Counted from the first letter of the stretch, positions 3,601 through 20,852 are shown. The stretch: 64,000 nt of DNA from Acidobacteriota bacterium (GCA_029263315.1 JAJCXR010000055.1:124195-188194); one strand, 5' to 3'. Notes: generated from the sequence alone by a model not told the origin. Made by a program: numbers and translations.

Positions 3601-4658
3601 TCGGGGGAGGCGTCGTCGTCGAGCTCCGCATCGCGATCACCTTCGCCGGGGTCCGGGTCTGGCTGCGCGGCGTGTTCGATCAGAAAGAGGGGCGTCTCCG
3701 GCTCTTGGAGCCACAGGACTGGGCTTCCCCAGGCCGGCCCCGGATGCTCGGCAGCGACGCTTCTTCGAGCCTTGGCAACAGCCGCCTCGGGGGAGTCGCC
3801 TTGTCGTAATTGACGATAGAAGACACGGCTGAAATGGCGGGAGATCGCCCTGTCGATGGCTAGCTCGAATCCCACCGCGGCGGCCGAACCGAAGGCAAGG
3901 GCTTGGCGGGCCAAGAGGTGGCCACCATGCTCGCCAGACGTGTCTTCGATGAATACGAGCCGTGGCACAGGGCTGAGAGACTTTTGGTAGAGATCTTCGA
4001 GGCGCAGCCTCTTCTTGCCTAAATCGAGGGAAATGTGGCCTAGCTCATTGGTCAGGAGATTGGCCGAGAGGTGCAAGATTTCTACTGGTTTGTTGGCTAA
4101 ATCAAGCGAGTTGATATCGCGACCGGTGAAAAGCAGCACCTCTGCATTTGGTGATGCTTCGAGACGAATACTTTCTTCAGATTGATTAGAGCTGATGGGA
4201 GGGCTGATCCACAGAATTCGGCGCAAGGGACGGGGTGGGGAGCCTGCCATGGGTGGCTCGACGAGGCGCGACAGGGTGACGTTTCCCAGCAAGAGGTAGG
4301 CGGAGGTTTCGGCCTCGAAAAGGTACTCCCAAGGCAATTCCAGCCAAGCTCGAGATGCCTCGTCGGCGCTGAGACGCAGGGCCAAGGTCGTCTGGCGGCT
4401 GGAGGACTGGTCCAAGCTCCGCAGGAAAAGCTGCCGGGCTCGGCTTTGGGGGAACAGCGTATCGAAAAGCCGTAGCCCAGCGAGCTCGAGGGAGGTGCCT
4501 CCATCTTCTGGAAAAAGCTCAAAGGCTTGCTCGAGCTGTTCGACCAACCCATTGCGGAGATGGGCTCTTGACGAATGATAGGTCTCGTCGGCGGCGGTAT
4601 AAATCCACCCCTTTTCGGCGAAGCGAACCGACAGCACCGTGGGCGTTGAGGTCAGCAC
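606..4658 (-). CDS. KAP-family P-loop NTPase (1350 aa) with an N-terminal CHAT-like domain and a C-terminal extension
   Basis: KAP-type Walker A SIGIFGEWGSGKSFFMHLL (about nt 2818-2870), FNAWHY motif, Walker B IVLYIDDLDRC. Predicted TM helices are inserted inside the NTPase core (LLAAALVLIVLALL..., LTVLVAFFAPIA), which is the KAP hallmark. The N-terminal ~300 aa show CHAT landmarks: LPWEYLF (about nt 4322-4345), ILHLSAN..GH, and AVGFELAIDRAISRHFSRVFYRQL. The expected catalytic Cys position reads VFIEDTSGE (no Cys). Confidence 0.8.
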   Translation of the reverse strand: MLTSTPTVLSVRFAEKGWIYTAADETYHSSRAHLRNGLVEQLEQAFELFPEDGGTSLELAGLRLFDTLFPQSRARQLFLRSLDQSSSRQTTLALRLSADEASRAWLELPWEYLFEAETSAYLLLGNVTLSRLVEPPMAGSPPRPLRRILWISPPISSNQSEESIRLEASPNAEVLLFTGRDINSLDLANKPVEILHLSANLLTNELGHISLDLGKKRLRLEDLYQKSLSPVPRLVFIEDTSGEHGGHLLARQALAFGSAAAVGFELAIDRAISRHFSRVFYRQLRQGDSPEAAVAKARRSVAAEHPGPAWGSPVLWLQEPETPLFLIEHAAQPDPDPGEGDRDAELDDDASPDTTDSADEDTTDSTENDGLLRRLALDSHARAALHIAVDYTRRRKPSKEGKARRLSSSALLLALADPHSLLSTDADVAFFRRCLQRPFRHQIEKDLTSLLAQWRQGDELDLTLPFDHQTDLPTLTLNAATILRRAERLARSSHGGPLGTRHLLASLFSNGPDNLRPAYAHRRLHRAGHSLEYLRHHLFDHLQQQWPGDNQNVWQQALVGPRPHLVSRFAADRPKGADRLFVEPYARALAAVVAAWETPQPLSIGIFGEWGSGKSFFMHLLNDAIHDLKGNTTRDAQGQRVFCRSIIQIDFNAWHYAESQIWASLVDHILRSLYRPLGEAKAQAKLQKLELIGIAQQEAEARLAAAQAALQQAEADKEKQLLGGEEIWRVEFWQSLPPELVPSEVRRSLETLQEAVGLKETLNTARLAYRQLSGIERARSGIRAIIAELWRHPKRPLLAAALVLIVLALLSQVDLASWFDSNWWQQRGHQIAAGLTVLVAFFAPIADIARRTWRQLTALRDWLQTHHRRLDDELRQKLRIHQENVQEAQRQVAQLEAERDAALRELEALRTPASFSRFLRQRLGDNTYSQHLGVISAVHNDFRTLSDLLLRHKEARRRASEDQLDNAEHHVDRIVLYIDDLDRCPSATVVQVLEAIHLLLAFDLFVVVVGVDVRWVAQSLADRYPQHLRAGGTKAAEPSEDEAPLLFQRRATPHDYLEKIFQIPFWLPPMGQQASRNLIRALTTLEPNLDPPAEDSTARQDLGTAGASQVTHGTLPTDASQPAIDPVAEEGARPCDGSQSVGNSQSVEAQDEALAKNAEPSSGPESDRTDPTSEAPPPGSEEPLSQLLSGVPNTVAAAQALHMEDGEILYMEALAGAVGRSPRRLKRFVNVYRILKASCTPGEALRFVRDDGRDGSYRAAMTLLALTTGAPSLAAALYRLLEQQDADADAGTWRDALRRYRRLQRAPKAEADAVHLAFDTYCNFAGQDRTLHDLQRWAPRVKRFTFRSGG

Positions 4659-8059: not shown

Positions 8060-8343
8060 GGCGGACCCTCCAAAGATCGCACGGGCTGTCTGAGGTGACG
8101 ACGGGCAGCCGGCATTGCAGGGGGACAAGTACTGCAGGCAGACAAGTATTGCAGGCAGAGAGCGTTCCTGGGGTTGAGGGTCCATCGTATACTGCAAGCG
8201 ACTACCTACTTCAGCGCCATGCCGGCCGTCGATCTTCCATCATGAGGACTACTACCATGCTCAGAAGGCCCACCGATACCATGCTCAGAAGGCTCACCAA
8301 CCATGCCACCTCGATACTCTCGACCCTCGACCGGCCGTTTCCC

Positions 8344-10464
8344 ATGGGCCTGGCTTGGCTGGTCGTCATGGTTGTTTCAGTGTGGGCGATGCCTGCCCTG
8401 GGGGCGGAGGAGCATGGGCTCGAACCTTCTCCGGCGTCGCCGGGGGAAACAGCCGATGAGCTGGAGACGGAGGTGGCGTTGCTGGCTCAGATCGGCCGTT
8501 GCTTCTCGCCCAGTTTTTCTCCGGACGGAGAGCGCCTGGCTTTTGTTTCCGACCTCAATGGCATCCCACAGGTATGGACGATTCCCACCCGCGGTGGGTT
8601 TCCCTCCCTGGTGACCAGTCTGCAAGATCAAGTAGGAGAGGTGCATTGGTCGCCCCAAGGGGAGACCTTAGCTTTCAGCTTGGCGCCCGGTGGCGGCATG
8701 AATCAGCAGGTTTACCGTATCGAAGCCGACGGCTCGGGCCTTGAGCGGCTCACCGCCGGAGGGCGGGACAACAACTGGCTAGGGACCTTCGACGACTCGG
8801 GCAAATGGCTCAGTTGGTCGTCCAACGTCGCGGACCCGAGCTCCATGGACGTCTGGCTCTACGACCTGACGGCTGGCCAAGGGCGCCTGGTGGTGGACAA
8901 CGAAGGCATCGGTCGGCTGGTGGATCTGGATCTTGTCGGCGGCCGCGGTGTGGTCTATCGCATGGTGAACCGGGGTGATGACAACCTCTATTTGGTGGAC
9001 TTCGAGGCGTCGTCCGAGACCTTGCTGACGCCCCACCAGGGACCGGGTAGTTTTGGCGGCGGCACCTTTTCGGCCGATGGCCGGACGGTATATATGACGT
9101 CCAATGCCGAGCGCGATCTGTCGGCCTTTGCCAGGGTCCGTCTCGACGCCGCCGGCCAACCGGGTCCCATCGAAGTGTTAGTGGCCAGGGACGATGCCGA
9201 GCTCGAGGGTTTCGAGATTTCCCACGACGGTGATATCGCCGCCTTGATTTGGAATCAAGCAGGACGCAACGAGCTCGAAATGCTGGACTTGGCTACGTTG
9301 AAGCCGTTGCCGTCGCCGCAGATGCCGGCGCAGATGATCAACGGTCTGACCTTCTCAGCGGACGATCGGCGGCTGGCAATGGTGCTCAGTGGAGCCTCTG
9401 CGCCGCTCGACATTTGGGTATTGGAGTTGGCCAGCCAAGAGCTCTGGCAAGTCACCCGCAGCCCCCATCCGGGCATCGATCTCGATCGTCTGGTGCAACC
9501 TGAGCTGGTGCGGTACCCGGCCCACGATGGGCTCGAGCTCTCCGCCTGGCTCTATCGGCCGCTCGGCGTTCAGGGGTCGGCGCCGTTTGTCCTAAGCTTC
9601 CACGGTGGGCCCGAGGGGCAGGAACGGCCCCGCTTCAACAGTGTCTACCAAGCCTTGGTGCAGCGTGGCATCGGCGTCTTGGCGCCGAATGTCCGGGGTT
9701 CGTCGGGTTTTGGCAAGCGCTTCGTCAATCTCGACAACGGTGCCCTGCGTTTCGACGGCATCAAGGACATCGAGGCGTCGACGAATTACCTCATCGATCA
9801 TCACCACAGTGAGGTCGGGCAGCTCGGCATCATGGGCGGCTCCTACGGCGGCTACATGACCATGGCCGGTTTGGCGTGGTATCCCGACCTCTTCGCGGCC
9901 GGTGTCAATCTATTCGGAGTGGTCAACTTCGAGACCTTCTTTGCGCAGACGGAGCCCTGGATGGCCGCCGTCTCGAAAGTCGAATACGGTGATCCCGAGA
10001 CCCAGGCCGATCTTTTGCGCCGGCTCTCGCCCATCCATTATCTCGATGCGGTCAAAACGCCCACCTTGGTGGTGCACGGCGCCAACGACACCAATGTTCC
10101 AGTGGTGGAGGCAGAGCAGGTGGTCGATCATCTGGAGAAGCGCGGAATTCCGGTGAGCTACGTGCTCTTCCCCGACGAAGGCCACGGCTTCCGCAAAACC
10201 GCCAATCGGCTGCGCATGGCGGTGGAGATCGTGCGCTGGTTCGAGACTTACTTGGTACGCCGCCAACCCCAAAACCCGAGCAGCAGCAGCATGGCACCAC
10301 CGCCCGCGACCTTCCATCCCCAGGTCGATGCACCGGCCGCCGCTTCCGGCGACACCCTCAGGTCCCCATTGCCCAGCAGACTGACCCCGGCCCAGGCGGC
10401 GGTGGGAAGCCCCTTGGCGATGGCCTCCCGCCGGGCGGATCGCAGGGCGGCGGCGGCGCTTTGA
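8344..10464 (+). CDS. Prolyl oligopeptidase family (S9) serine peptidase with an N-terminal TolB-like beta-propeller
   Basis: Catalytic region GIMGGSYGGYM (Ser), HGANDTNV (Asp) and DEGHGF (His). The ORF is open from 8095, but the likely start is the Met before the signal peptide MGLAWLVVMVVSVWAMPALGA (ATG at 8344). The 3' ~70 codons after the DEGHGF catalytic-His motif are low-complexity and overlap the convergent CHAT gene by 217 bp. Confidence 0.8.
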   Translation: MGLAWLVVMVVSVWAMPALGAEEHGLEPSPASPGETADELETEVALLAQIGRCFSPSFSPDGERLAFVSDLNGIPQVWTIPTRGGFPSLVTSLQDQVGEVHWSPQGETLAFSLAPGGGMNQQVYRIEADGSGLERLTAGGRDNNWLGTFDDSGKWLSWSSNVADPSSMDVWLYDLTAGQGRLVVDNEGIGRLVDLDLVGGRGVVYRMVNRGDDNLYLVDFEASSETLLTPHQGPGSFGGGTFSADGRTVYMTSNAERDLSAFARVRLDAAGQPGPIEVLVARDDAELEGFEISHDGDIAALIWNQAGRNELEMLDLATLKPLPSPQMPAQMINGLTFSADDRRLAMVLSGASAPLDIWVLELASQELWQVTRSPHPGIDLDRLVQPELVRYPAHDGLELSAWLYRPLGVQGSAPFVLSFHGGPEGQERPRFNSVYQALVQRGIGVLAPNVRGSSGFGKRFVNLDNGALRFDGIKDIEASTNYLIDHHHSEVGQLGIMGGSYGGYMTMAGLAWYPDLFAAGVNLFGVVNFETFFAQTEPWMAAVSKVEYGDPETQADLLRRLSPIHYLDAVKTPTLVVHGANDTNVPVVEAEQVVDHLEKRGIPVSYVLFPDEGHGFRKTANRLRMAVEIVRWFETYLVRRQPQNPSSSSMAPPPATFHPQVDAPAAASGDTLRSPLPSRLTPAQAAVGSPLAMASRRADRRAAAAL

Positions 10465-13103
10465 CCCGTTGCTAGATGACCGTAGAAGCTTTCGAAGAAA
10501 AAGGCGGCGTCGGCGTCCCGCAAGGGCCAACGGGAGCCGATGACACCGTGGGCTCCCGCTTCGAAGAAGGCCCGCGCCAGACTCAAGATGCCTTCGGCCC
10601 GCAGCAGCTCACCGGCGGCTGTCTGGCAAGCGGAGACCACCACCAGGCGACCTCCGAGATCGAGGTCGGCGATCTCCGGCGATCTCAGCAGGCCATCCTC
10701 TTCCAAGCCCCCGGGGGTGAGGATGAGGCAGGAACGCTCGGCCCGTTGACCGTCGGCGACCGCATGGGAGGCAAAATGAACGACACCATATTGGGCCAGG
10801 TCGTGCCCCTTGACAAAGTGCTCACTAGCCTCGGCGCCGACCACCAAGCGTCCTCCCAAGCGCCGGACGATGGCTCTGCCTTCGTGTCGTGCATGGGGCA
10901 GCTGGCCGAGATGTAGGCCCTGCAGCAGGACAGCGCTGCGGGTGGTGTCGGCATGCCGCGGAGCGGAGGGTAGCCGTGGGTCGGCGAGGGCGAGCAGCGA
11001 ACGCCGGGCGGGGGGAACCTCGTCGTGGCGCCAGCGGTGCCACAGGCTGGCGGACGGCGCCTGGACGATCTCAAAACGTTGGCCGAGGGCCGGGGCCTCC
11101 GGTTCAGCCCGCAAGGCCGCAAAGGGCAAGTGATGCAGCACTCCATCGGGCACCAGCACGAGGCGCCGGGTGGCGGCGGGGAGATCCGCCAGGGCGTCGG
11201 TCAGCAGGGCGGTGTAGAGCTGGTGTGCCACGTCGGCCTCGCTGCCGTCCCGGCGCTGCAGCAGGCCGAGAAAAATGGAGACCGACGGCGCCAGGGCCAG
11301 CGAAGGGTCGAGGGCGAAGCGTCGGCTACCCTGCGCCGTGCTGACGATGACCCAGGCGCCGCCCCCCGCCTGGCCGAAGAAGTCGATCCACAGGTCGATC
11401 TGAAAGGACAATAGCGCCTCGTCGGGCCGCAACGTCGCCTCGATCTCCCGCAGCTCGACGAAACGGGTCTCGCGGCGCTCCTTGGCGACCTCGGGGGCGG
11501 CGAGGAAACGCTCTTGGAGCTCCCAGCCGTCGAGCTCGTTGAGCAGGCGTTGACGGAGGTCGGAACCCAGGCCGGGATCGAGCAGACGCCGCTGGATGGC
11601 AGCGATGCGTTTGCGGATCCGCCGACGCTCACCTTCGGAGGTCCCAACGGTGGGGCTTCGCTCCACGCTCTCCAGCAGCACCGGCGAGCGCAGGCGCTCG
11701 ATGATGGCGAAGGCTTGGGCCAAATCCGGCGTTTCGTCTTCCAGCAGACGGCCCGCCAGCCAAGCCAGCTCCGTCGACCAGTTGCTCAGCAGCTGTGCTC
11801 GGGTGAGGGGATCTTGTTGCACCTTTCGCAAGCTTTCGATGGCGTCGAGGGCCTGGTGGCTGACCTCCAGAGCGGCCTCCCGTTCGAGGGCATGCCAGGC
11901 GGCACGCACCAGGGAGCGCCAAGCGAACACTTCGTAGAGAGGATTCTGATGTCGCTGCGCGAGATCGAGGCCCTGGCGACTCGCCGCCAGCGCCGCGGCC
12001 GGGTCTCGCTGGGCCAAGAGTCGGCCGCGCACCGAATGGCAGGAGGACTCGATGGCCACGTCGGCGATCTCCCTGGCCGCTGCAAGACAGGCCTCGATAT
12101 GGACTTTGGCGTCCTCGGGCCGACGGCTGATCAAAACCTCCGCCAGCATGCGATGGGCCCGTGCGGCGTTGATCCGGCTGCCTTCCTTGTTCGCTAAGTC
12201 GAGGGCGACCGCCGCTCGGGCCTCGAGATCCGGCAGAGCCGCCGCGTCTGGGGCCAGCTCCAACTGGCCTTGACGTGCCATGGCGATATTGAGGGCGATG
12301 CCCGCCGTGCCGTAGGCATCCTCCTGGGCCTGGCGCAGGGCCAGCAGATGCTCATAGGTGGTGATGGCGTCATGCCAGCGACCCAGCTCGAAGGCCAGCC
12401 TGCCGAGCTCGAAGAGAATCGACGATTGCAGGCGTGCCAGGTCATCTCGTTCGGCAACCAGCCCGGCGGCCCGTTGTAGATCGGCGTAGGAGCGCCCGAG
12501 GTCACCCCCGGTGTTGAGGCGATGGCTGGCGGCAAGCACCAGGGCTCGGGCCGTGGCCTCGCTGTTCGCGCCAGCTTCGGCGCTGCGTTGGGCTGCCAAC
12601 ATGTGCTCTGTCGCGGCCCGGTGTTGGCCCTGTCGCAGCAGAATGCGGTGGGCATTGGCATGGGCTAGGACCACTCCGAGGGTTTCACCGTGCCTTTCGA
12701 GCTGTGGGATGGCGGCTTCGAAGTGACGCAAGGCCGCCTCGTTGTCGCGCCCGGTGGCGAAATAGCCGAGCACCAAGCTGGGCCAGCCGTGGTCTGTATC
12801 GTCTCGGCGGCGGGTTTGCAGCGCCTCCCTCGATTGTGACCAGGCTTGGGGGTGGGTCGAACGGGAGTACTGGCGGGCGACCTGGAAGAAGCACAGGTGG
12901 CTAAGGTAGTCCTGGGGAGCGTCTAACACTTTCTGACGGCAAGCGGCGAGCTGCATCGCCGGGTCGTTTTCTTCGCCGCTGGCCCAGGCCGGTTGGAGAG
13001 TCAGCCAGGCGAGGCACACAACAAGCACCGCAGCGACGAGCCCAACTGAGGGCGCGCTGTAGCACGCAGTGTGTCGACGCAAGGCCCGGAGCTCAGAACC
13101 CAT
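10248..13103 (-). CDS. Secreted/anchored TPR-repeat protein with a C-terminal CHAT (caspase-like) peptidase domain
   Basis: CHAT landmarks: LVLVPDGVLHHLPFAALRA, His in VHFASHAVADG, Cys in LVVVSACQTAAG, and the closing GAHGVIGSRWPLRDADAAFFFESFY. The upstream part is TPR-like helical repeats. A signal/anchor follows the internal Met MGSELRALRRH... (ATG complement at 13101-13103); the ORF is open further to 13271. Confidence 0.85.
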   Translation of the reverse strand: MGSELRALRRHTACYSAPSVGLVAAVLVVCLAWLTLQPAWASGEENDPAMQLAACRQKVLDAPQDYLSHLCFFQVARQYSRSTHPQAWSQSREALQTRRRDDTDHGWPSLVLGYFATGRDNEAALRHFEAAIPQLERHGETLGVVLAHANAHRILLRQGQHRAATEHMLAAQRSAEAGANSEATARALVLAASHRLNTGGDLGRSYADLQRAAGLVAERDDLARLQSSILFELGRLAFELGRWHDAITTYEHLLALRQAQEDAYGTAGIALNIAMARQGQLELAPDAAALPDLEARAAVALDLANKEGSRINAARAHRMLAEVLISRRPEDAKVHIEACLAAAREIADVAIESSCHSVRGRLLAQRDPAAALAASRQGLDLAQRHQNPLYEVFAWRSLVRAAWHALEREAALEVSHQALDAIESLRKVQQDPLTRAQLLSNWSTELAWLAGRLLEDETPDLAQAFAIIERLRSPVLLESVERSPTVGTSEGERRRIRKRIAAIQRRLLDPGLGSDLRQRLLNELDGWELQERFLAAPEVAKERRETRFVELREIEATLRPDEALLSFQIDLWIDFFGQAGGGAWVIVSTAQGSRRFALDPSLALAPSVSIFLGLLQRRDGSEADVAHQLYTALLTDALADLPAATRRLVLVPDGVLHHLPFAALRAEPEAPALGQRFEIVQAPSASLWHRWRHDEVPPARRSLLALADPRLPSAPRHADTTRSAVLLQGLHLGQLPHARHEGRAIVRRLGGRLVVGAEASEHFVKGHDLAQYGVVHFASHAVADGQRAERSCLILTPGGLEEDGLLRSPEIADLDLGGRLVVVSACQTAAGELLRAEGILSLARAFFEAGAHGVIGSRWPLRDADAAFFFESFYGHLATGQSAAAALRSARREAIAKGLPTAAWAGVSLLGNGDLRVSPEAAAGASTWGWKVAGGGAMLLLLGFWGWRRTK

Positions 13104-13183
13104 CACCGGGCGGGACGCCCTTCGGGGCGCCCCGCCTATGGTTTCTCGGGCTGCTGCCTTGGCGGCAAAGTTGAAGGGGGTGA

Positions 13184-13735
13184 TCAGAAGGTGGTCTCCC
13201 CAGACTGCCAAACCCCAGGGCAATCCCCGTTGAAGATCGGACCCTCTTCTTCGGCTGCTGGCCCAGTGCACTTCACTAGCTCTTCGGTGGTCATGTTGCC
13301 GAGGTCGATCTGGTTGAGCGAGGTAATCGGCTGCATTCCCGCTTCGGTCTTGCGGCTCAACACGATGACGAACCTCACCGTGAGGGTTAGCCCATTATGG
13401 TTGTAGTCGTCACCCCGGACCGTCAGGCTCAACGCCTGACCAGCATTCAGGTTCTGATGAAGATCCTCGAGACGTACGCCGAGATCGTCGTAGGCTTCGA
13501 GGGTGAGCGTGCCGCCCTCACTGGTCGCGGCGACATCGGCCACGGTCAGCAATAGGAGCTGATCCGGCAGGAGGTCGTAGAACCCCGTTTTCATGGTCGA
13601 GGTCAGGACATCGGCGCTCGCCGGCAGGGATGTCAGCATGAGCAGAACGAGAAAGCACCCCGCTCCCAAAATCTTGCCTACGACGCGGTGGGGGATCAAA
13701 GATGAGGAGGAGATCGTTGCATTGGGTTGAGACAT
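13184..13735 (-). CDS. Hypothetical small secreted protein (183 aa)
   Basis: Hydrophobic signal-like segment ILGAGCFLVLLMLTSLPASA. No known motifs. Sits between the anti-sigma factor gene and the CHAT-TPR gene on the same strand. Confidence 0.4.
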   Translation of the reverse strand: MSQPNATISSSSLIPHRVVGKILGAGCFLVLLMLTSLPASADVLTSTMKTGFYDLLPDQLLLLTVADVAATSEGGTLTLEAYDDLGVRLEDLHQNLNAGQALSLTVRGDDYNHNGLTLTVRFVIVLSRKTEAGMQPITSLNQIDLGNMTTEELVKCTGPAAEEEGPIFNGDCPGVWQSGETTF

Positions 13736-13815
13736 GGCTGCTTCTCCGAAGGTAATCTGAGGTTGATCGAAGCAACAGTGGAGTTGGGGGCGCCCGTCCG
13801 TCGGAGCGAGCTCCG

Positions 13816-14535
13816 CTACTGCATCTCGGCGAAGAAGGTCGCCGAGGTGAGCCGACGACCATCGGGTAGATGGGCATCGATTTGCCAGAGGAGACGGGAG
13901 CCTGAAGGGATGGCGCTCAGCTGTTGGGCCGCGACGCGATACTCGTTGGTTCCGAGATCATCGACATCGAGTAGCACCTGCAACTGCGGCGTCAGCAGTC
14001 GCAACCGATAGCGGGCATCTTCGATCGCCGACCACCGGAGCGTAAAATCCTGCCTGGGAAGACGTTCCCCTTCGGCCAACAGGCTGACGACTTCGTCTTG
14101 CGTCGCCTGCCGGTATTGGGAGACCGATCCGGGCATCCATGGAGACTGACTGAGACCTATGCTCAGGGCCAACATGGCTGCCACCGCAAATCCGAGGCTC
14201 CATTGATGCCGCCGAACCCACGGTCGGGTGGCGACCCAAGAGGGCGTCGCGGTTTGGCGTGCGCTGACCTCAGCGTCTTCTTCCGCCCCTAGGCGTTGGT
14301 CTGCCGTGACCAGGTCGCCGAGCTCGTCGCTGAGGGCTTTGGCGATGCGCCAGGATTCCGCCATGGCTGGATTTCGAGCCGTCTCTTCGATCACTGCATG
14401 GCGTTCTTCTCGGCTCAGCTCGCCCCGTACCGCTCGCCAGATGCGTTCATCGTCGACCGTATCCAGGTCGCCGTCTTCCGCCATCGCGGAAAAGGCTCGA
14501 CGTAGCGCTTCGCTGTCTTCGGGGTTGAAGCTCAA
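13816..14535 (-). CDS. Putative anti-sigma factor (single-pass membrane protein)
   Basis: Start overlaps the stop of the upstream ECF sigma gene by 4 bp (ATGA coupling). Cytoplasmic N-terminal ~100 aa, one TM helix (SLGFAVAAMLALSIGL), then a periplasmic domain. This is the usual ECF partner architecture. Confidence 0.55.
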   Translation of the reverse strand: MSFNPEDSEALRRAFSAMAEDGDLDTVDDERIWRAVRGELSREERHAVIEETARNPAMAESWRIAKALSDELGDLVTADQRLGAEEDAEVSARQTATPSWVATRPWVRRHQWSLGFAVAAMLALSIGLSQSPWMPGSVSQYRQATQDEVVSLLAEGERLPRQDFTLRWSAIEDARYRLRLLTPQLQVLLDVDDLGTNEYRVAAQQLSAIPSGSRLLWQIDAHLPDGRRLTSATFFAEMQ

Positions 14536-15083
14536 GGCTGGATTCCCTTCTTGCGCAGACAGTGCCTTAGATTATCGAGGCCACGGAACACTAGATTCTC
14601 GGTTCGTTTTCGCTTCCATCCCAAGGTTCGGGAGGATTCTGGTACCGAGTGACCCTGCAAGTAGAGGATCACCGCCATGCGGCGTTCTTGTTTCATGAGA
14701 CCTAAACAATCTTTGATCGCCCGTCCCGTCTGGCGGGCGACCGCGTCCCGTTCCGGATCGTGGGCGTCCCTTGGTTCCACTGTGTCGTCGCTGTCCTCCA
14801 GTGGGCTCTCCCGTTGGCGGCGTAAACGACGGATTTCATCGACGAGGGCACTGTGTGCCACTCTGAACAGATAGGACGCATTGGCGGGGATCATTCCCTC
14901 ACTCTGTCTTCGCTGCATCTGCATGATCTTCATCATTGCCATTTGCACCAAGTCGTCGCGGCGATCGGACAGCCAGGCGGGACAAATACGATAGATGGCC
15001 CGCTCCAGCTTGGGCCGTAGCTCATCCAGGGAGATGCCGTCGGCCTGTCCTGTCTCGGGGTTTGCCATCGCTGGTTCCATCAT
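14532..15083 (-). CDS. ECF (sigma-70 family) RNA polymerase sigma factor
   Basis: Region-2-like DDLVQMAMMKIMQ and region-4 HTH RMAVILYLQGHSVPESSRTLGWKRKRTENLVFRGLDNLR. The ORF is open to 15572, but an ECF-sized 184-aa product starts at MMEPAMANPETG (ATGATG complement at 15078-15083). Confidence 0.75.
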   Translation of the reverse strand: MMEPAMANPETGQADGISLDELRPKLERAIYRICPAWLSDRRDDLVQMAMMKIMQMQRRQSEGMIPANASYLFRVAHSALVDEIRRLRRQRESPLEDSDDTVEPRDAHDPERDAVARQTGRAIKDCLGLMKQERRMAVILYLQGHSVPESSRTLGWKRKRTENLVFRGLDNLRHCLRKKGIQP

Positions 15084-15467
15084 GTTTGTCTTCGTTGCCC
15101 TTGGTGAATGAAGCACCCTGTGGACCAATCGCTCGGGATCTGCCGTTCCTTGGATCGACAATAACAGCCGATCGACGTTCGCCTGCGGACACCACCGTCC
15201 CGGTATCGGACATTGGGCCGTCCCGGAATGGCGGATGCCAGGGTAGGCCAGAGGGCCGTCGAGACCGGTGGCTCCATACAATAAGGCGAGAAGCCATCCC
15301 TCATCCCTTTGTCGACGGAGATTCTGCCGTCTGGAACGTCCTTTGCAAAGACCGAGGTCGATAAGACATTTTTGCAGCTCCATGCAACCACAGGCGTCTG
15401 GCGACAGGGAAGCGCATGGGGCTGTATGGGGCGAAGGTTGTGATGTGCGTGGGTTATGGTGTTGTGG

Positions 15468-15563: not shown

Positions 15564-15583
15564 GTTGGACATGGAGATCGGTG

Positions 15584-18001
15584 ATGTTGGGTGAGCTTCT
15601 ACGGGATGTGGGCTTGGCGGCCCGTCGCTTGATCAGGCGCCCGTTGTGGACGCTGCAGGCGGTGACTGTCTTGGCCTTGGGTTTGGGGGCGGCGCTAGCG
15701 CTGTACGGCGTCATCCATGCGGTGCTGCTGCGGCCTTTGCCCTTTGATCAGGCGCAGGAGGTGGTCAAGGTGATGCCACAACATCGCCAGACCGGTACCC
15801 TGTCGACGGTTCCCTACCGTAGTTTTGTGCGTTGGCGAGATACCGTCGACGGTTTCAGCGACATCGCGGTGTTCCGCGGCGGAATGCGGGTGCTCGATGG
15901 TGCGGAGCTCCCGGAACGGTTGTCGACGGCGGCGGTTTCGGAGGACTATTTCGACGTTTTGGGGGTCACGGCTGATCGCGGTCGGGTGTTTGTGGCGGAG
16001 GATTTTGCAGCCGGCGCCCCGCCGACGGTGGTCATTGATCGGCGGCTCTGGCGGAGCCGCTTCGGCGGCGACAAAGATGTCGTGGGCCGTCGTATTGTCC
16101 TCGACGGCGAGCCCGCGACGGTGATCGGCGTGGTGGATCGCCAATACCACGATGCCCGGGCGGATCTATTCGGCTGGAAAGCCGTGTGGGTGCCGTTGCG
16201 GGTGGACGAAGCGGTGGAGGTGGCGGCCGGTACCCATGGTTATGGGGTGGTGGCGCGGTTGGCCGATGGCGTCGACGTGACGGCGGTGGAGTCGTCCCTC
16301 GAAGCGGTGGCTCTGAACCTGGAAGCCACCTATCCCGACACCCACCGGGGCTGGGGAGTGAGCGTCCGCACGGCGCCGGATCTGCTGCTCGGTGAGGCTG
16401 AGGAACCGCTGCGCATTTTGACCGTCGCCGTCCTCCTGTTGTTGCTCATCGCTTGCTCCAATGTGGCCCACCTCTTCCTCGCCCTAGCCCCTGAGCGCCG
16501 CCGGCGGGCGGCGATTTGCCGCGCTCTGGGGGCTAGCAATTGGCAGATGTTGCGTCAGCTTTGGTGCGAGAGTCTGTGGGTATCCTGCCTGGCCGCGGTC
16601 GGCGGGCTGCTGCTGGCGCTCTGGGTCCTGGAGATCATCCCCCTGCTGGCGCCGGCCGGCACCCCGCGGCTCGATCATCTGGCGATCGGCGGCCCGGTCT
16701 TGTGGGGTGCCTTGATCCTGACCCTCGGCACGGCGTTCCTGTCGAGTCTCTTGCCGGCCCTCGGTCTGCGGCGTATGGGCGCCGAGACGTTTGCCAGTCG
16801 ACGCCACGGTCGGCCCCGCCACGGCCGTTGGTCGCGGGAGCTCTTGGTGGTCGCTGAGGTGGCCTTGGCCCTCGTCCTGGTGCTCTCCACCGGGCTCCTA
16901 CTGCGCAGCTTGTGGAGCCTGCAGGCGGTAGACCCGGGGTTCGACAGCAATAATCTATTGCTAGCCCGCATCGACCTACCGCCCTCCCGCTATGGTGACG
17001 CAGAGCAGCGGCAGGAGCTGGCCAGCCATCTCGAGACGACGTTGCGTCAGCTGCCCGAAATCGAGGACGCGGGACTGCTCTTCCAAGAACCGCCGCTCAA
17101 GGATCTGCCCCATGTCTTCCACTATTGGCTGCCCGGGTCGCCGCCACCGGAGGGCCGTCGCTACACCGCCGGATGGCTGGTCAGCGGTGGCTACCAGCGG
17201 GCCATGGGATTGCGACTGTTGGCGGGACGCTGGTTCGAGGACGACGAGCGCACCGACAACAGCACTCATTTGGTGATCAACCAGACACTGGCCCGGAGCC
17301 TCTGGCCGGACCAGGACGCGGTGGGTCGTATCTTGATGTCGGGCACCGCGGATGCCCCAAAGCAGCATCGGGTCCTCGGGGTCGTGGCGGATGTGGCCTA
17401 TGCCGGCTTGGGGACAACGCCGGAGCTGCAAATGGAGATGTATGCCCCGTGGGGTTCCGTCCAGCGGCAAGTGACCGCAGTGGTGCGGGGGCCGGGCATC
17501 ACCAGGCGACGGCAGCAAGTGGAGGACGCCATCCGGCAGATCCTCCCCGGGGCGCCCATCCTCGGCCTGGAGAGTGGCCGTGAGCTACTCGCAGCCGATC
17601 TCGTCGAGCAGCGTTTCCTCACCCAACTGCTCAGCGCCTTCGCCCTCCTCGCCTTGGTCCTGGCCGCCGCCGGGCTCCATGGGGTGCTCAGCCATGGGGT
17701 CAGCCAACGACGAGCCGAAATCGGTCTGCGCATGGCCCTGGGAGCCGATGCCAGGCAGATGGCGGGCATGATCGCCGCCCAGGGCATGCGGGCGGTGGGC
17801 CTCGGCTTGATGGTCGGTGTTGTGCTGTCCTTGGCCTTGCGCCGTCCCTTGGCGTCCCACCTGTACGGTATCGGTCCCGGAGACTTGATGACCTATGCGG
17901 TGGTCATCATGCTGTTGCTGGGCGTCGCCCTGGTGGCCAGTTGGTGGCCCGCCCGGCGCGCCGCACGCACTGACCCGGCGACGACCCTGCGGTGGGAGTA
18001 A
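15584..18001 (+). CDS. MacB/FtsX-type ABC transporter permease with duplicated FtsX domains (806 aa); no adjacent ATPase subunit
   Basis: N-terminal TM, large periplasmic domain, a four-TM bundle, then a second periplasmic domain and TM bundle (DUF214/FtsX-like pattern). GTG at 15581 and ATG at 15584 are both possible starts. Confidence 0.75.
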   Translation: MLGELLRDVGLAARRLIRRPLWTLQAVTVLALGLGAALALYGVIHAVLLRPLPFDQAQEVVKVMPQHRQTGTLSTVPYRSFVRWRDTVDGFSDIAVFRGGMRVLDGAELPERLSTAAVSEDYFDVLGVTADRGRVFVAEDFAAGAPPTVVIDRRLWRSRFGGDKDVVGRRIVLDGEPATVIGVVDRQYHDARADLFGWKAVWVPLRVDEAVEVAAGTHGYGVVARLADGVDVTAVESSLEAVALNLEATYPDTHRGWGVSVRTAPDLLLGEAEEPLRILTVAVLLLLLIACSNVAHLFLALAPERRRRAAICRALGASNWQMLRQLWCESLWVSCLAAVGGLLLALWVLEIIPLLAPAGTPRLDHLAIGGPVLWGALILTLGTAFLSSLLPALGLRRMGAETFASRRHGRPRHGRWSRELLVVAEVALALVLVLSTGLLLRSLWSLQAVDPGFDSNNLLLARIDLPPSRYGDAEQRQELASHLETTLRQLPEIEDAGLLFQEPPLKDLPHVFHYWLPGSPPPEGRRYTAGWLVSGGYQRAMGLRLLAGRWFEDDERTDNSTHLVINQTLARSLWPDQDAVGRILMSGTADAPKQHRVLGVVADVAYAGLGTTPELQMEMYAPWGSVQRQVTAVVRGPGITRRRQQVEDAIRQILPGAPILGLESGRELLAADLVEQRFLTQLLSAFALLALVLAAAGLHGVLSHGVSQRRAEIGLRMALGADARQMAGMIAAQGMRAVGLGLMVGVVLSLALRRPLASHLYGIGPGDLMTYAVVIMLLLGVALVASWWPARRAARTDPATTLRWE

Positions 18002-18050
18002 GGCACAATGTCACCGAATGGACCGCCGCCGAGTAACGTACAATGAACCT

Positions 18051-18473
18051 ATGCGTGCCCTCGGCCAACATCTTCTGCTCGACCTCTGGGGGGTCGGCTC
18101 CCTGCTCGACGATGCGGAGGCCTTGCGCCTCCATTTGGAGGCGGCAGCCAGGGCCGGTGGAGCGACGGTGGTGGAGTCCCGCTTCCATCGGTTTACACCC
18201 CAGGGGGTGAGCGGCGTGGTTATCCTAGCGGAGAGCCATCTCGCCCTGCATACGTGGCCCGAGAACGATTTTGCGGCTGTGGATGTCTTCACCTGCGGCG
18301 ATCCCGAGCTGACACGTGCCGTGGCCGATGAGGTGGTGGCTCGTTTGTCACCTCTGGTGCACCAGGTACGCCGCTTCGAGCGCGGCTCTCCGCTGGCCGT
18401 GAAGCGCGAGAGACCTGAGACGCCCAAGAGACCTGTGACGCTCAAGAAACCTGTGACGGCAGAGAACCACTAG
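18051..18473 (+). CDS. speH: S-adenosylmethionine decarboxylase proenzyme, small bacterial/archaeal pyruvoyl type
   Basis: Signature autoprocessing motif VVILAESHLALHTWPE (about nt 18222-18263) and FTCGD. Start taken at the internal Met MRALGQHLLLDLWG (18051). The ORF is open from 17895 but overlaps the permease. Confidence 0.8.
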   Translation: MRALGQHLLLDLWGVGSLLDDAEALRLHLEAAARAGGATVVESRFHRFTPQGVSGVVILAESHLALHTWPENDFAAVDVFTCGDPELTRAVADEVVARLSPLVHQVRRFERGSPLAVKRERPETPKRPVTLKKPVTAENH

Positions 18474-18476
18474 GCG

Positions 18477-19118
18477 ATGCAAGGCCCACCTCCCCCGCGC
18501 ACCATCGCGTGCCCGTCCTGTGGTGCATCGCGCACCCTGCACAATCCCGGCTTGGCCATGTTCGTCTGTGAGTACTGCTCCAGCGCCGTCTACTGGGACG
18601 ACGAGAAAGTACGGGCCGCCGGCCAGACAGCCGTCCTCAGTGAGGGTTGCTCGCGGCTCTATCGCGGCGCCGTGGGGAGTTTTCACAGCAAGCGTTTCCG
18701 TGTCCTCGGCCGAGTGCGCTACGGCTTCGCCGACGGATTCCTGGACGAATGGTTCCTCGAGCTGGACGACGGCTCCACCTGCTGGATGAGCGAAGATCAG
18801 CATCAGCTGGCGGTGCAAAGGCGCATCGAGCTCGAAGCTCTGCGGGCCTTCGAGCACTATGCCGTCGGCATGGAGATCGCAGCCCGCGACAGTCGTTTCA
18901 TGGTGCAGGAGATCGGCCACCTGACCTGCCTGGGGCTCGAAGGGGAGCTGCCGAAGGCCATCGAGGTGGGAGAGACCTACCCTTATGTCGACGCCACCAG
19001 CCTGGAGGGGCGCTATGCCCTGGGCATTGAATTCGACGACGATCCGCCATCGGTATTCCTCGGCCGTTGGTTGGGCAACAGCGAAGTGAAGCTCGACGAC
19101 GAAGGGGAAGTCTGGTGA
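18477..19118 (+). CDS. DUF4178-family protein with an N-terminal zinc ribbon
   Basis: CPSCGASRTLHNPGLAMFVCEYCSSAVYWD is a Cys4 ribbon. It is followed by the ~150-aa beta-rich region characteristic of DUF4178 proteins. Placed 4 bp after the speH stop. Confidence 0.55.
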   Translation: MQGPPPPRTIACPSCGASRTLHNPGLAMFVCEYCSSAVYWDDEKVRAAGQTAVLSEGCSRLYRGAVGSFHSKRFRVLGRVRYGFADGFLDEWFLELDDGSTCWMSEDQHQLAVQRRIELEALRAFEHYAVGMEIAARDSRFMVQEIGHLTCLGLEGELPKAIEVGETYPYVDATSLEGRYALGIEFDDDPPSVFLGRWLGNSEVKLDDEGEVW

Positions 19119-20431
19119 CTTCGTCGTCCTTTGCTGCCGGTGCCGGCCGTGCCCGCCCAGCCTACCAACCCAGGCGGTCGGCTTGCCCCCATTGTGGTGC
19201 CCCGCTGGACCTCAAAGACGAAAACAGCCGCATGGTGGTCTGCGGTTCCTGTGGCAGCCACCTACAAGCAGACGCCGGGGTCTCCGAGGTGGAGCTGCGA
19301 GTGCTGTCGCAGCAGGCCATCGCTCAGCCGCACGGTTTTGTCTTGGAGATCGGCGATTCCTTTGTCCACGAGAAAGCCCGTTACGAGGTCATCGGGCGGT
19401 TGGCCATCGGCGACGCCGAAGAGCCCCATGGCGAGCCGACGCTGCAGTATTTGCTCTTCAATCCCCGGCGCGGCACCCTGTGGTTGAGCTCCTACCTAGG
19501 GCATTGGGATCTGTCCGAGACCTGGCGTGTCTTGCCGGCGGGTGAGCCCAGGGCGTTGCGCAAGGGCGACGCCATGAAGAGCCATGACGGGCGCTCCTGG
19601 CTGCTGGTGGAGCAGGGGACCTCGGTGATCCGCTACGTCGATGGGGCCTTGCCTTGGGTGGCACACATCGGGGACCGCTCCGACTATGTTGAGCTAGCCG
19701 CCGCCGACGGCAGCGGTGAGCTCTATGAGGTGGAATACCGTCAAGGGGAGATGGAGGTGGGGCGGGGCCGCTGGTTGTCGGTGGCGGATGTGGCCCAAGC
19801 CACCGGCAAAGAGATCGCCAAACCCCAGGTTCGGCGGGAGAACGTCGCCCAGGTTCTGAAGACCTACAACGGCATGCTGTGGATCGCCGGATTGATTCTG
19901 GTGGTCAATATCGTCTTCGCATTGATGACCCTCAGCCTCGGTGATCGGGTGCTGGACCAACGGCTGGATACCGAAGCCCTGCGCGGCGAGGTGTTGACCG
20001 AGCCGTTCAACGTCGCCTCGCCGGGCAACGTCATCGACGTTTCCTTCGAGGCCCCCTTGGACAACGCCTGGATGAGCATCGACTGGGCGGTGGTGCGGGG
20101 CGACGAAGAAGTCATCCATGTCGACGACGGCGATCTCGAGTACTACCATGGCGTCGAGGGGGGCGAAAGCTGGAGCGAGGGCAGCCGTTCGAGCACATCG
20201 TACCTGCGCATCGACGAGGCGGGGAGCTACCGCTTGCTGGTACGGGCGGTCAGCGCCCGAGGGGAAGCGGTCGAAGCCCAGCCCAGTCAGGTGCCCGTGC
20301 GGGTCAAAGTCATCGACGGGGCGCGGCCGCCGTGGTTCGCCCTGCTGGCCTTGGGGGCCAGCGTCCTAGCCTTCATCATGGTGGCGGTGCTTCGCCATCA
20401 GTGGAAAACCGGCGACGAGGAGGACGACTGA
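19067..20431 (+). CDS. Second DUF4178-like protein with N-terminal zinc ribbon, two TM helices and an extracytoplasmic domain
   Basis: Zinc ribbon CPHCGAPLDLKDENSRMVVCGSCGSHL. Its domain is paralogous to the preceding gene (HGFVLEIGDSF..ARYEVIGR). TM helices MLWIAGLILVVNIVFALMTL and WFALLALGASVLAFIMVAVL. The start could be ATG 19067 or GTG 19115. Confidence 0.55.
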   Translation: MVGQQRSEARRRRGSLVTSSSFAAGAGRARPAYQPRRSACPHCGAPLDLKDENSRMVVCGSCGSHLQADAGVSEVELRVLSQQAIAQPHGFVLEIGDSFVHEKARYEVIGRLAIGDAEEPHGEPTLQYLLFNPRRGTLWLSSYLGHWDLSETWRVLPAGEPRALRKGDAMKSHDGRSWLLVEQGTSVIRYVDGALPWVAHIGDRSDYVELAAADGSGELYEVEYRQGEMEVGRGRWLSVADVAQATGKEIAKPQVRRENVAQVLKTYNGMLWIAGLILVVNIVFALMTLSLGDRVLDQRLDTEALRGEVLTEPFNVASPGNVIDVSFEAPLDNAWMSIDWAVVRGDEEVIHVDDGDLEYYHGVEGGESWSEGSRSSTSYLRIDEAGSYRLLVRAVSARGEAVEAQPSQVPVRVKVIDGARPPWFALLALGASVLAFIMVAVLRHQWKTGDEEDD

Positions 20432-20629
20432 ATGTTCAAACGATTGTTATTGGCTGTGCTGTTGGGTGGAGGCTCTCTGTTGGCCATGGCGGCCACCTTC
20501 CTCAATGTCGGCGTGGCCCGTGCTGAGGAACCCCAAGGCGTTCAGTTGCGCCAGGAAAGCGCCCGCGGCGGCGCCTTTTTCACCACCTACCGCAGCCACC
20601 GTGGGGGTGGTCTCCGCGGCGGTAAATGA
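20432..20629 (+). CDS. Small secreted Gly-rich protein (65 aa)
   Basis: Its ATG directly abuts the previous gene's TGA (ctgaATG). Signal peptide MFKRLLLAVLLGGGSLLAMAATFLNVGVARA. An RBS-like GAGGA for the next gene overlaps its stop. Confidence 0.4.
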   Translation: MFKRLLLAVLLGGGSLLAMAATFLNVGVARAEEPQGVQLRQESARGGAFFTTYRSHRGGGLRGGK

Positions 20630-20639
20630 GGATGGAACG

Positions 20640-20852
20640 ATGAGCAACGATCCCGTATGGACCTTGATTTCGACGCTTTTCTACGCTGGGCTCGGCGTGG
20701 TTTTTTTCGGTTTTTCTTTTTGGGTGGTGACGATGATCGCCCCCTTCTCGGTACGTAAGGAGATCGAAGAGGATCAGAACATCGCCTTGGCCATCATCCT
20801 GGGCGCGGTGTTCATCGGCTTGTCGATCATCATCGCCGCCGCCATCACTTGA
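20640..20852 (+). CDS. DUF350-family small membrane protein (YjfL-like)
   Basis: 70-aa two-TM protein MSNDPVWTLISTLFYAGLGVVFFGFSFWVVTMIAPFSVRKEIEEDQNIALAIILGAVFIGLSIIIAAAIT. This is the DUF350 pattern (TM, ..R.EI..DN.A.AI.., TM). Confidence 0.6.
   Translation: MSNDPVWTLISTLFYAGLGVVFFGFSFWVVTMIAPFSVRKEIEEDQNIALAIILGAVFIGLSIIIAAAIT

Follow-up and report, generated by a model that had tools for sequence, protein, structure and literature searches.

An ECF sigma factor, a small anti-sigma factor and a separate TPR-CHAT protease encoded together in an uncultured soil acidobacterium

To our knowledge, only two characterised systems connect proteases that have a CHAT domain with extracytoplasmic function (ECF) sigma factors. 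One is Craspase, and the other is DdvA, reported mainly from myxobacteria. DdvA of Myxococcus xanthus is a transmembrane anti-sigma factor that carries tetratricopeptide repeats (TPR) and a CHAT domain, and it is paired with the ECF sigma factor DdvS (PDB 8ROT/8RW5; PMC11506125). It has been proposed to cut its own linker before RseP acts, and fused DdvA-like proteins have been reported only in Myxococcota and one Comamonas (PMC11506125). In the type III-E Craspase, Cas7-11-Csx29, the inhibitor Csx30 of the ECF-like CASP-sigma is cleaved by Csx29 (PMC10028731). Here we analysed a 64,000-nucleotide (nt) stretch of DNA from an Acidobacteriota bacterium (GCA_029263315.1 JAJCXR010000055.1:124195-188194, hereafter the window), in which four open reading frames (ORFs) lie in the same orientation on the minus strand within positions 10248-15083, as a first-pass annotation had described. 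They encode an ECF sigma factor, an anti-sigma factor, a 183-residue protein and a TPR-CHAT protease. This cassette is an uncharacterised split relative of DdvA-DdvS. We consider it on balance probable that the four genes form a sigma-controlled operon and a self-contained envelope-signalling module, in which the released sigma factor raises both its own inhibitor and a periplasmic caspase-like protease. The DNA belongs to an uncultured Gram-negative soil acidobacterium, and the Mfd protein encoded at 45100-48567 is about 71% identical to proteins from metagenome-assembled genomes (MAGs) of Thermoanaerobaculia/Acidobacteriota.

Like DdvA-DdvS, the cassette combines an ECF sigma factor with a single-pass anti-sigma factor and a periplasmic TPR-CHAT part that has a His-Cys dyad. 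In DdvA, however, the TPR-CHAT part is the periplasmic domain of the anti-sigma factor, all in one polypeptide with its N-terminus inside the cell, whereas the cassette encodes it separately, as a protein that has its own signal peptide and a predicted C-terminal anchor. The anti-sigma factor of the cassette is small (239 residues) and its periplasmic domain is unrelated to that of DdvA. The anti-sigma domain of DdvA is a zinc-bound CHCC domain, while the window protein lacks the ligands. The regulon of DdvS is an island of CBASS (cyclic-oligonucleotide-based anti-phage signalling) and CRISPR (clustered regularly interspaced short palindromic repeats) genes, in contrast to the exported hydrolases that are linked, in relatives of the cassette, to the candidate promoter motif described below. 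The cassette occurs in Acidobacteriota-like soil bacteria, and overall identity to DdvA is 16-17%. No anti-sigma domain was found in the CHAT protein, which begins with a signal peptide, and the cassette is not a member of the one-polypeptide DdvA family; it is DdvA-like in its working at most.

ECF sigma/anti-sigma pairs, TPR-CHAT proteases and the joining of both in DdvA-DdvS are known already. What sets the cassette apart is that its architecture is split between a protease of its own, anchored at the C-terminus, and a small anti-sigma factor that is zinc-free and has its own periplasmic domain, together with an optional beta-sandwich partner, a candidate promoter embedded in the sigma gene, a putative regulon of exported hydrolases in relatives, and the bacterial group in which all of this is found. 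The main text of the ECF re-classification paper does not mention CHAT.

The TPR-CHAT protease

The protease gene (10248-13103, minus strand) encodes 951 residues. The length of 1007 residues given by the first-pass annotation corresponds to the maximal ORF from a GTG at 13271, which overlaps the 183-residue gene by 88 nt. In the public gene call, as in all orthologues, the start is instead the ATG at 13103, and the public protein P0001 is 100% identical over 951 residues. The protein comprises a signal peptide (residues 1-41, cleavage region …QPAWA/SGEEN), a TPR superhelix (approximately 48-540), a CHAT domain (approximately 625-911, encoded at 10371-11231; Pfam CHAT E = 2.2e-53) and a C-terminal membrane helix (approximately 925-946, 10266-10331) followed by RRTK. 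An N-terminal signal peptide is present in all aligned relatives, as is a hydrophobic C-terminal helix with Arg/Lys behind it. Because the signal peptide and the helix with its basic tail are conserved, the protease is predicted to face the periplasm, anchored in the inner membrane. The earlier view of a secreted protease therefore stands as regards export and fails as regards free secretion, and the protein should be exported and membrane-anchored rather than free. The tail of the window protein (VSPEAAAG…GGGAMLLLLGFWGWRRTK) resembles a PEP-CTERM/GlyGly-CTERM sorting signal. We rejected this assignment, since SPE/TPE and GGG are absent in relatives of 38-39% identity (RPFQP…), and only the helix and basic tail are conserved at this end; none of the NCBIfam sorting-signal models matched the CHAT protein.

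The His/Cys dyad was correctly described as intact. His780 (codon 10764-10766) and Cys826 (codon 10626-10628) lie within HFASHA and VVxSACQT and are invariant in 11 aligned relatives that are 29-100% identical. They align with H862/C907 of DdvA and H615/C658 of Csx29, the residues named as the catalytic dyads of those proteins (PMC11506125; PMC10028731). When a profile of the CHAT domain only was compared with solved structures, DdvA was the best match (8rot_B, E = 1.5e-9), with Csx29 at 5.9e-5 and separase at 0.08, while a profile of the TPR part matched the TPR structures of Pins/LGN (E = 5e-16). The AlphaFold (AF2) model of the protease, with a predicted local distance difference test (pLDDT) of 80 and a predicted template modelling score (pTM) of 0.74, places about 25 helices ahead of an alpha/beta CHAT fold. 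Foldseek placed DdvA first among PDB entries (8rw5, E = 4.2e-13, 16-17% identity), then separase and Csx29 (11-12% identity), the full-length matches to the three ranging in E from 4e-13 to 1e-10.

The CHAT domain may be catalytically active. The protein might instead serve as a periplasmic platform or receptor, for example for the 183-residue protein or for envelope components, with its caspase-like site unused. The TPR superhelix makes up about half of the protein, the protease is without a known substrate, and DdvA itself was seen with its site in a resting, incomplete state (PMC11506125). Against this, His780/Cys826 and the HFASHA and VVxSACQT motifs are invariant across relatives that are 29-40% identical overall, which argues for selection on catalysis, and we regard a non-catalytic role as very unlikely.

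The other proteins with a comparable fold are further removed. Craspase also ties a TPR-CHAT protease functionally to an ECF-type sigma factor through a sigma inhibitor, and the dyads align. It is, however, cytoplasmic, RNA-guided and CRISPR-encoded with a soluble Csx30, whereas the cassette has no CRISPR context and both its protease and its anti-sigma factor are of predicted membrane/periplasmic topology; the profile match to Csx29 is also weaker than that to DdvA. Separase shares the architecture of helical repeats and a CHAT domain (Foldseek E ~1e-12), and, reminiscent of securin, a small partner is encoded immediately upstream of the protease in the cassette. Unlike the cassette protease, separase is cytoplasmic/nuclear and much larger, and the 183-residue beta-sandwich has no sequence or fold similarity to securin. 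That it acts as a securin-like partner, as inhibitor or adaptor, is pure conjecture.

The sigma/anti-sigma pair and the third gene

The sigma gene (14532-15083, minus strand) encodes a group IV (ECF) sigma factor of 183 residues. This identity, already given by the first-pass annotation, is borne out by matches to TIGR02937 (54.7 bits, cut-off 42.9) and to Pfam Sigma70_r2 (residues 21-89) and Sigma70_r4_2 (residues 121-170), and orthologues were found in every cassette. The start may be at 15083 or 15080, an ambiguity that arises because the reading frame is open upstream as far as 15572. Some variants were seen among the relatives. In L006 (5580-6135) the sigma gene is frameshifted with respect to the near-identical sister locus L005, which places the C-terminal region 4 in a different frame and marks either a sequencing error or a decaying copy; short GC-rich direct repeats are also inserted there, as a block, upstream of the gene. 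In L072 (3-1625) the gene before the anti-sigma homologue encodes at least 540 residues, with an ORF that reaches the contig start and a C-terminus like sigma region 4; the product could be a sigma factor that is greatly extended at its N-terminus.

The start of the anti-sigma gene (13816-14535, minus strand) overlaps the sigma stop, and the 4-nt overlap noted in the first-pass annotation is present in all related cassettes examined. Such an overlap of stop and start is the usual signature of translational coupling. The protein begins with a class-I anti-sigma domain, which a hydrophobic segment (residues 111-129 or thereabouts, 14149-14205) separates from a beta-rich periplasmic domain (140-239). 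Eighteen family members have in common a helical region at the N-terminus, a single hydrophobic segment rich in Ala and Leu, and a C-terminal domain, also conserved, that spans about 100 residues. The hydrophobic segment of the window protein is borderline, the 19-residue stretch WSLGF…GLSQ (residues 110-128) having a mean hydropathy of 1.48 by hand calculation, and an automated hydropathy scan at a threshold of 1.5 called no segment in it. A single membrane segment between cytoplasmic and extracytoplasmic domains is nevertheless predicted.

The assignment as an anti-sigma factor is supported by the family. The anti-sigma factors of L022, L024 and L028 carry H-x3-C-x2-C where the window protein reads EETARNPAM, and Pfam zf-HC2 matches 5 of the 18 family members (best E = 3.8e-5), the window protein not among them. 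The window protein has no Pfam family of its own and matches the NCBIfam 'antisigma' model weakly (E = 1.4e-3); in the family alignment its HxxxCxxC zinc ligands are absent. On this alignment the protein is a zinc-free member of the anti-sigma family derived from the zinc-binding anti-sigma (ZAS) type, and it would be expected to bind its partner sigma factor. RseA and MucA are likewise zinc-free versions of the class-I anti-sigma domain. The resemblance to the classical systems under regulated proteolysis, sigma-E/RseA/DegS/RseP and SigW/RsiW, extends to the two-domain sigma factor, the co-transcribed and translationally coupled anti-sigma factor, and the order of N-terminal anti-sigma domain, one membrane segment and extracytoplasmic domain, with HxxxCxxC kept in relatives of the cassette. 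Unlike those systems, the cassette has no linked site-1 protease of the DegS or PrsW type; a clan-CD CHAT protease is found instead. Its candidate promoter also differs, lying inside the sigma gene and having GTGAGGG rather than GGAAC as its -35 half.

It is possible that the TPR-CHAT protein is an input to this system, instead of or besides being an output. The TPR superhelix would then sense a protein ligand next to the anti-sigma factor, possibly together with the 183-residue protein, and the CHAT domain would act as a site-1 protease that cuts the juxtamembrane linker of the anti-sigma factor, with [Y/F]-Arg142 as the candidate site. Intramembrane proteolysis would free the sigma factor, and a feed-forward loop would result if the protease is also sigma-induced. 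That the protease could be the site-1 protease for the anti-sigma factor follows from DdvA being its closest solved relative, both by Foldseek and by the CHAT-domain profile, and from the prediction that both proteins lie at the periplasmic face of the inner membrane. There is precedent in DdvA (PMC11506125) and in the cleavage of the sigma inhibitor Csx30 by Csx29 (PMC10028731). Arg142 (codon 14110-14112) is invariant in the family, usually follows Tyr or Phe, and sits 10-20 residues outside the membrane segment in a linker that is otherwise variable. Both the cleavage site and an interaction between protease and anti-sigma factor are speculative. A search of 1.84 billion clusters at 50% identity from public metagenomes returned 1275 anti-sigma family representatives at E <= 1e-3 (799 at E <= 1e-10), and the best 150 of the 1275, all 202-265 residues long, include no anti-sigma/CHAT fusion. 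A sequence search of the anti-sigma and 183-residue families against PDB chains gave nothing meaningful. We rate this input role as a possibility of rather low probability, and the operon reading, with the protease as output, is not mutually exclusive with it.

The idea is of interest since the split cassette makes it directly testable. The proposal that DdvA cleaves itself is not yet testable because the signal for DdvA is unidentified, whereas here protease, anti-sigma factor and partner are separate, so that each can be expressed, mutated and mixed independently. In a more specific version, which we think unlikely, the tethered protease, with the beta-sandwich protein as co-sensor or inhibitor, would cut after the invariant Arg and would itself be induced from the intragenic sigma promoter. 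If true, this would be a caspase-driven feed-forward switch over an arsenal of secreted hydrolases in soil Acidobacteriota and their relatives.

The third gene (13184-13735, minus strand) is the variable member of the cassette. The size of 183 residues and the secreted nature given in the first-pass annotation were upheld, the protein having an N-terminal hydrophobic signal sequence with probable cleavage after ASA41, and it is predicted to be an exported beta-sandwich. It matched no family in Pfam, NCBIfam or PADLOC. Homologues could be aligned from 16 loci, the first profile having missed more divergent members in L009 and L013. Neither L022 nor L024 has the gene, and its place is taken by a 63-residue ORF in L070 and, in L028, by a 2.3-kb gene; it is therefore optional in the cassette. 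Homology to the periplasmic domain of the anti-sigma factor was considered and ruled out (hhalign probability 0.5%).

Conservation of the cassette

Scanning metagenomes with the CHAT alignment yielded 62 loci, on all of which profiles of the four cassette proteins were then run. Wherever the CHAT score exceeded about 600 bits and the upstream sequence reached 2 kb, the sigma and anti-sigma genes stood directly before the CHAT gene on its strand. The related loci were all recovered from metagenome or MAG assemblies, and a profile search of genome contigs returned a single distant CHAT protein from Polyangium. In all, 21 loci combine a close CHAT relative with sufficient upstream sequence; in 20 of them the sigma and anti-sigma genes lie directly upstream of the CHAT gene, on the same strand, with differing flanking genes, so that the linkage seen in the window holds in related genomes. 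Full linkage was seen in the metagenome loci L007-L013, L020, L022, L024, L025, L027 and L030, and partial linkage in L014. CHAT proteins scoring below 250 bits in the 62-locus scan never had sigma and anti-sigma genes upstream. Working in reverse, a look-up from an anti-sigma homologue of 37% identity led to L070, which reads sigma, anti-sigma, small ORF, CHAT.

Part of this linkage could be local synteny, the sigma/anti-sigma and CHAT genes being neighbours by chance. L002, L003 and the P0002 contig are syntenic with the window, and the three closest relatives (80, 73 and 56% identity) are syntenic over the whole region (>15 kb); they are uninformative on linkage by themselves, being syntenic throughout. 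P0009 and P0010 (38% identical), however, have the same four-gene cassette in a different neighbourhood, as do L005 and L006, and no flanking gene family is common to more than 4 of 19 cassette loci. The cassette thus recurs in at least four neighbourhoods at 30-40% protein identity with all flanking genes changed, and the intergenic gaps, down to 4-12 nt, imply co-transcription. Chance adjacency is contradicted by these comparative data, and we give it next to no weight.

Across the family the gaps measure 12-93 nt between the anti-sigma gene and the third gene and 4-37 nt between the third gene and CHAT. Many are too short to hold a promoter, and with gaps as small as 12 and 4 nt in relatives the four genes form an operon that needs no intergenic promoter. 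No terminator-like sites were found between the cassette genes of the window. A GC-rich hairpin of 12 bp with a four-base CGAA loop (13109-13136, minus strand; -39.1 kcal/mol, z = -2.94 on folding the strand of the 87-nt gap before CHAT) ends 5 nt before the CHAT start codon, where the ribosome-binding site of CHAT would be expected. It is not a typical terminator, as it has no T run, and it could modulate translation or stabilise the transcript. Small GC hairpins like it also occur in cassette gaps of L002 and L011.

The layout varies at the edges of the family. At 9440-9740 of L004, a near-perfect palindrome of about 300 bp and a 45-residue fragment of a di-haem oxidoreductase replace the first three genes of the cassette, which suggests secondary loss through a deletion or a mobile-element scar. 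In L028 (2031-9531) a CHAT gene is directly followed by sigma, anti-sigma, the 2.3-kb gene and a second CHAT gene, and the locus may represent two tandem cassettes with a different third gene.

A candidate promoter motif, the proposed circuit and neighbouring genes

The first-pass annotation had suggested looking for an ECF-type promoter (AAC-N16/17-CGT-like) in front of the third gene and CHAT. Neither AAC-N16/17-CGT nor any conserved ECF-like element is present in the 80-nt gaps that precede 13735 and 13103, and the motif described here has no copy in them. A motif of another form does lie upstream of CHAT, inside the sigma gene. A search upstream of the sigma genes returned a recurrent 8-mer that proved to be part of a bipartite motif, GTGAGGGR-N16-CGTYC when read in the sense of the cassette. 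It has 20 strict matches in 583 kb of related loci against 0.62 expected from first-order Markov simulations (100 runs, maximum 4). The only perfect copy on either strand of the 64-kb window, GTGAGGGAATGATCCCCGCCAATGCGTCC, is at 14874-14902 (minus strand) within the sigma coding region; a base-composition estimate gives a chance expectation of about 0.02 perfect matches for the window. It consists of a -35-like half, GTGAGGGA, a 16-nt spacer and a -10-like half, CGTCC, and points to the anti-sigma, 183-residue and CHAT genes.

Copies in the relatives occupy three recurrent places. The first is within the sigma coding sequence, on the sense strand and about 180 nt from the start, the second is directly after the stop of the anti-sigma or CHAT gene, and the third is upstream of the sigma gene, with the copy pointing away from it. 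A copy stands directly before the third gene in L009, L013, L027, L070 and L071. L070 and L071, which were reached through the anti-sigma family and lay outside the derivation of the motif, have copies inside sigma and after the anti-sigma stop, and L070 has one divergently upstream as well. Within the sigma gene, the codon before a conserved GAG ends in T in 17 of 18 loci while coding for Ser, Arg, Gly or Thr, at an overall frequency of T in the third codon position of 12%; that the T is kept while the amino acid varies indicates a constraint on the DNA as well as on the protein. Within 20-100 nt downstream of the non-coding copies, a gene for a signal-peptide protein begins, with its Shine-Dalgarno sequence and start codon. 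The genes so linked encode BTRD1 plus beta-lactamase-fold proteins that are polyglycine-hydrolase-like, BTRD1 plus metallopeptidase-like proteins, one beta-lactamase-fold protein, RTX-repeat proteins and several small proteins with no assigned function. We also considered the opposite reading, GAACGA-N14-TCCCTCAC, which would imply autoregulation of sigma and antisense transcription elsewhere, and rejected it because the Shine-Dalgarno sequences and start codons follow in the other orientation, as seen both for copies located behind the CHAT stop and for those that precede sigma. GTGAGGGR-N16-CGTYC is a candidate for the cognate promoter of this sigma family.

The region upstream of the sigma gene gave a different picture. 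Matches to canonical ECF promoters (AAC-N15-18-CGT, GAAC-N14-19-GTC) in 19 loci were scattered and non-conserved, and a Gibbs sampler run on the 300 nt upstream of the sigma genes found no convincing common motif (about 14 bits over 34 columns). No sense-orientation copy of the bipartite motif was found upstream of any sigma gene, and sigma-dependent transcription is therefore predicted for the anti-sigma gene, the third gene and CHAT, not for sigma. In L008, L010, L011, L013 and L024 an extended -10 element, TGnTAnnnT (for example TGCTAGACT), lies just upstream of the predicted sigma start, within about 10-20 nt, which suggests basal transcription of the sigma gene by the housekeeping sigma factor in those relatives, possibly as leaderless mRNAs. 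An equivalent element was not identified in the window clade. There, conserved blocks between the sigma gene and the divergent MacB/FtsX-type transporter gene (15581-18001) were considered as an ECF promoter and are better explained by a sigma-54-type promoter. The window contains a single match to such a promoter, TGGAACGTCCTTTGCA (TGGAAC-N5-TTGCA) at 15332-15347 (plus strand). It is also conserved in L002 and L003, and the transporter gene, which it would serve, begins 234 nt downstream. Conserved GTCC/GGAC inverted repeats at about 15170-15212, a further 100-140 nt upstream, look like an enhancer-binding-protein site.

In the operon reading that we favour, the sigma and anti-sigma factors would be translationally coupled through the 4-nt overlap. 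The anti-sigma factor would hold the sigma factor at the inner membrane by its cytoplasmic zinc-free class-I domain while exposing its domain of about 100 residues to the periplasm. A periplasmic signal, presumably one arising at the envelope, would inactivate the anti-sigma factor and free the sigma factor, which would direct RNA polymerase to GTGAGGGR-N16-CGTYC inside its own gene; recognition of the motif by the sigma factor of the window is presumed from the sequence associations described above. Sigma activity would raise the anti-sigma factor, as negative feedback, along with the 183-residue protein and the TPR-CHAT protease, and not sigma itself. The protease would be exported and tethered to the outer face of the inner membrane by its C-terminal helix. 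The module would in this way switch on an exported proteolytic and hydrolytic programme, which in relatives would include secreted hydrolases. The original suggestion of a sigma-induced caspase-like protease fits this model once the size of the protein, its location and the position of the promoter are corrected.

A typical ECF promoter has GGAAC at -35 and CGT at -10 and usually lies upstream of its own operon. ECF systems are also normally positively autoregulated, and an internal promoter that excludes sigma is unusual. Both points weigh against the proposed circuit, as do several features of the data. The -10 half of the motif contains CGT, but its -35 half, GTGAGGG, is not the canonical GGAAC, and association is the sole link between the motif and the sigma factor. 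The copy in the window is coding, and its -10 half (TCG TCC / TCG TTC) overlaps conserved Ser-Ser/Phe codons, so that part of the conservation is protein-driven. The spacers of some non-coding copies resemble that of the coding copy, and common descent could inflate the number of matches. Within the window clade, the search for a promoter of the sigma gene itself found none. The CHAT gene of L004, the sole exception among the 21 loci, stands without sigma and anti-sigma genes.

The same motif bears on whether the protease is an input. The CHAT gene lies downstream of the putative sigma-dependent promoter, like a regulon member, and in relatives the motif precedes other secreted hydrolases, which fits an output role. 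Together, the lack of fusions among the best 150 anti-sigma representatives and the regulon-like position of CHAT weigh somewhat against site-1 proteolysis as its primary role.

Both characterised links between TPR-CHAT proteins and ECF sigma factors belong to phage defence (PMC11506125; PMC10028731), and this raised the question of whether the cassette senses phage at the envelope and switches on defence genes, with CHAT as sensor or abortive-infection effector. About 6-10 kb away (606-4658) there is indeed a KAP-family NTPase, whose matches are QatA-like. However, PADLOC has no family for the sigma factor, the anti-sigma factor or the 183-residue protein, and CHAT gave only a marginal match to BovA (E = 1.3e-4). 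No CRISPR, CBASS or other defence genes are conserved beside the cassette, flanking families reaching at most 4 of 19 loci, and the motif-linked genes of relatives encode secreted hydrolases and RTX proteins. The surroundings in the window are ordinary housekeeping chromosome, with mfd, ftsI, murG and a cell-division/cell-wall cluster. A defence role is not supported by these data, and we regard it as improbable to a high degree.

The cassette is not rare, with about 800 anti-sigma clusters (50% identity, E <= 1e-10) in public metagenomes, and it would define a widespread, unstudied route of envelope signalling in poorly characterised phyla. The motif provides a handle on the regulon, which in relatives may include polyglycine-hydrolase-like enzymes, metallopeptidase-like proteins and RTX proteins. 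A cognate promoter within the sigma gene would also be unusual wiring, predicting negative rather than positive autoregulation.

Beyond the MacB gene, the region 18000-22500 holds genes for an S-adenosylmethionine decarboxylase, two DUF4178 proteins and a DUF350 protein and a spermine/spermidine-synthase-like gene, a cluster inferred from synteny with L002, L003 and the P0002 contig rather than from a direct scan of the window. The KAP-family P-loop NTPase (606-4658, minus strand; 1350 residues) matches PADLOC QatA (E = 2e-19) and PifA-like models and may be defence-related; it is not conserved beside the cassette in other loci. On the other side of the CHAT gene, a convergent ORF of the S9 prolyl-oligopeptidase family (8095-10464, plus strand) overlaps the 3' end of CHAT by 217 nt (10248-10464). 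Its low-complexity C-terminal tail is absent in the orthologues of L002 and L003, which end 176 nt and 9 nt beyond the CHAT stop, and the window ORF may have lost its stop codon or be over-long.

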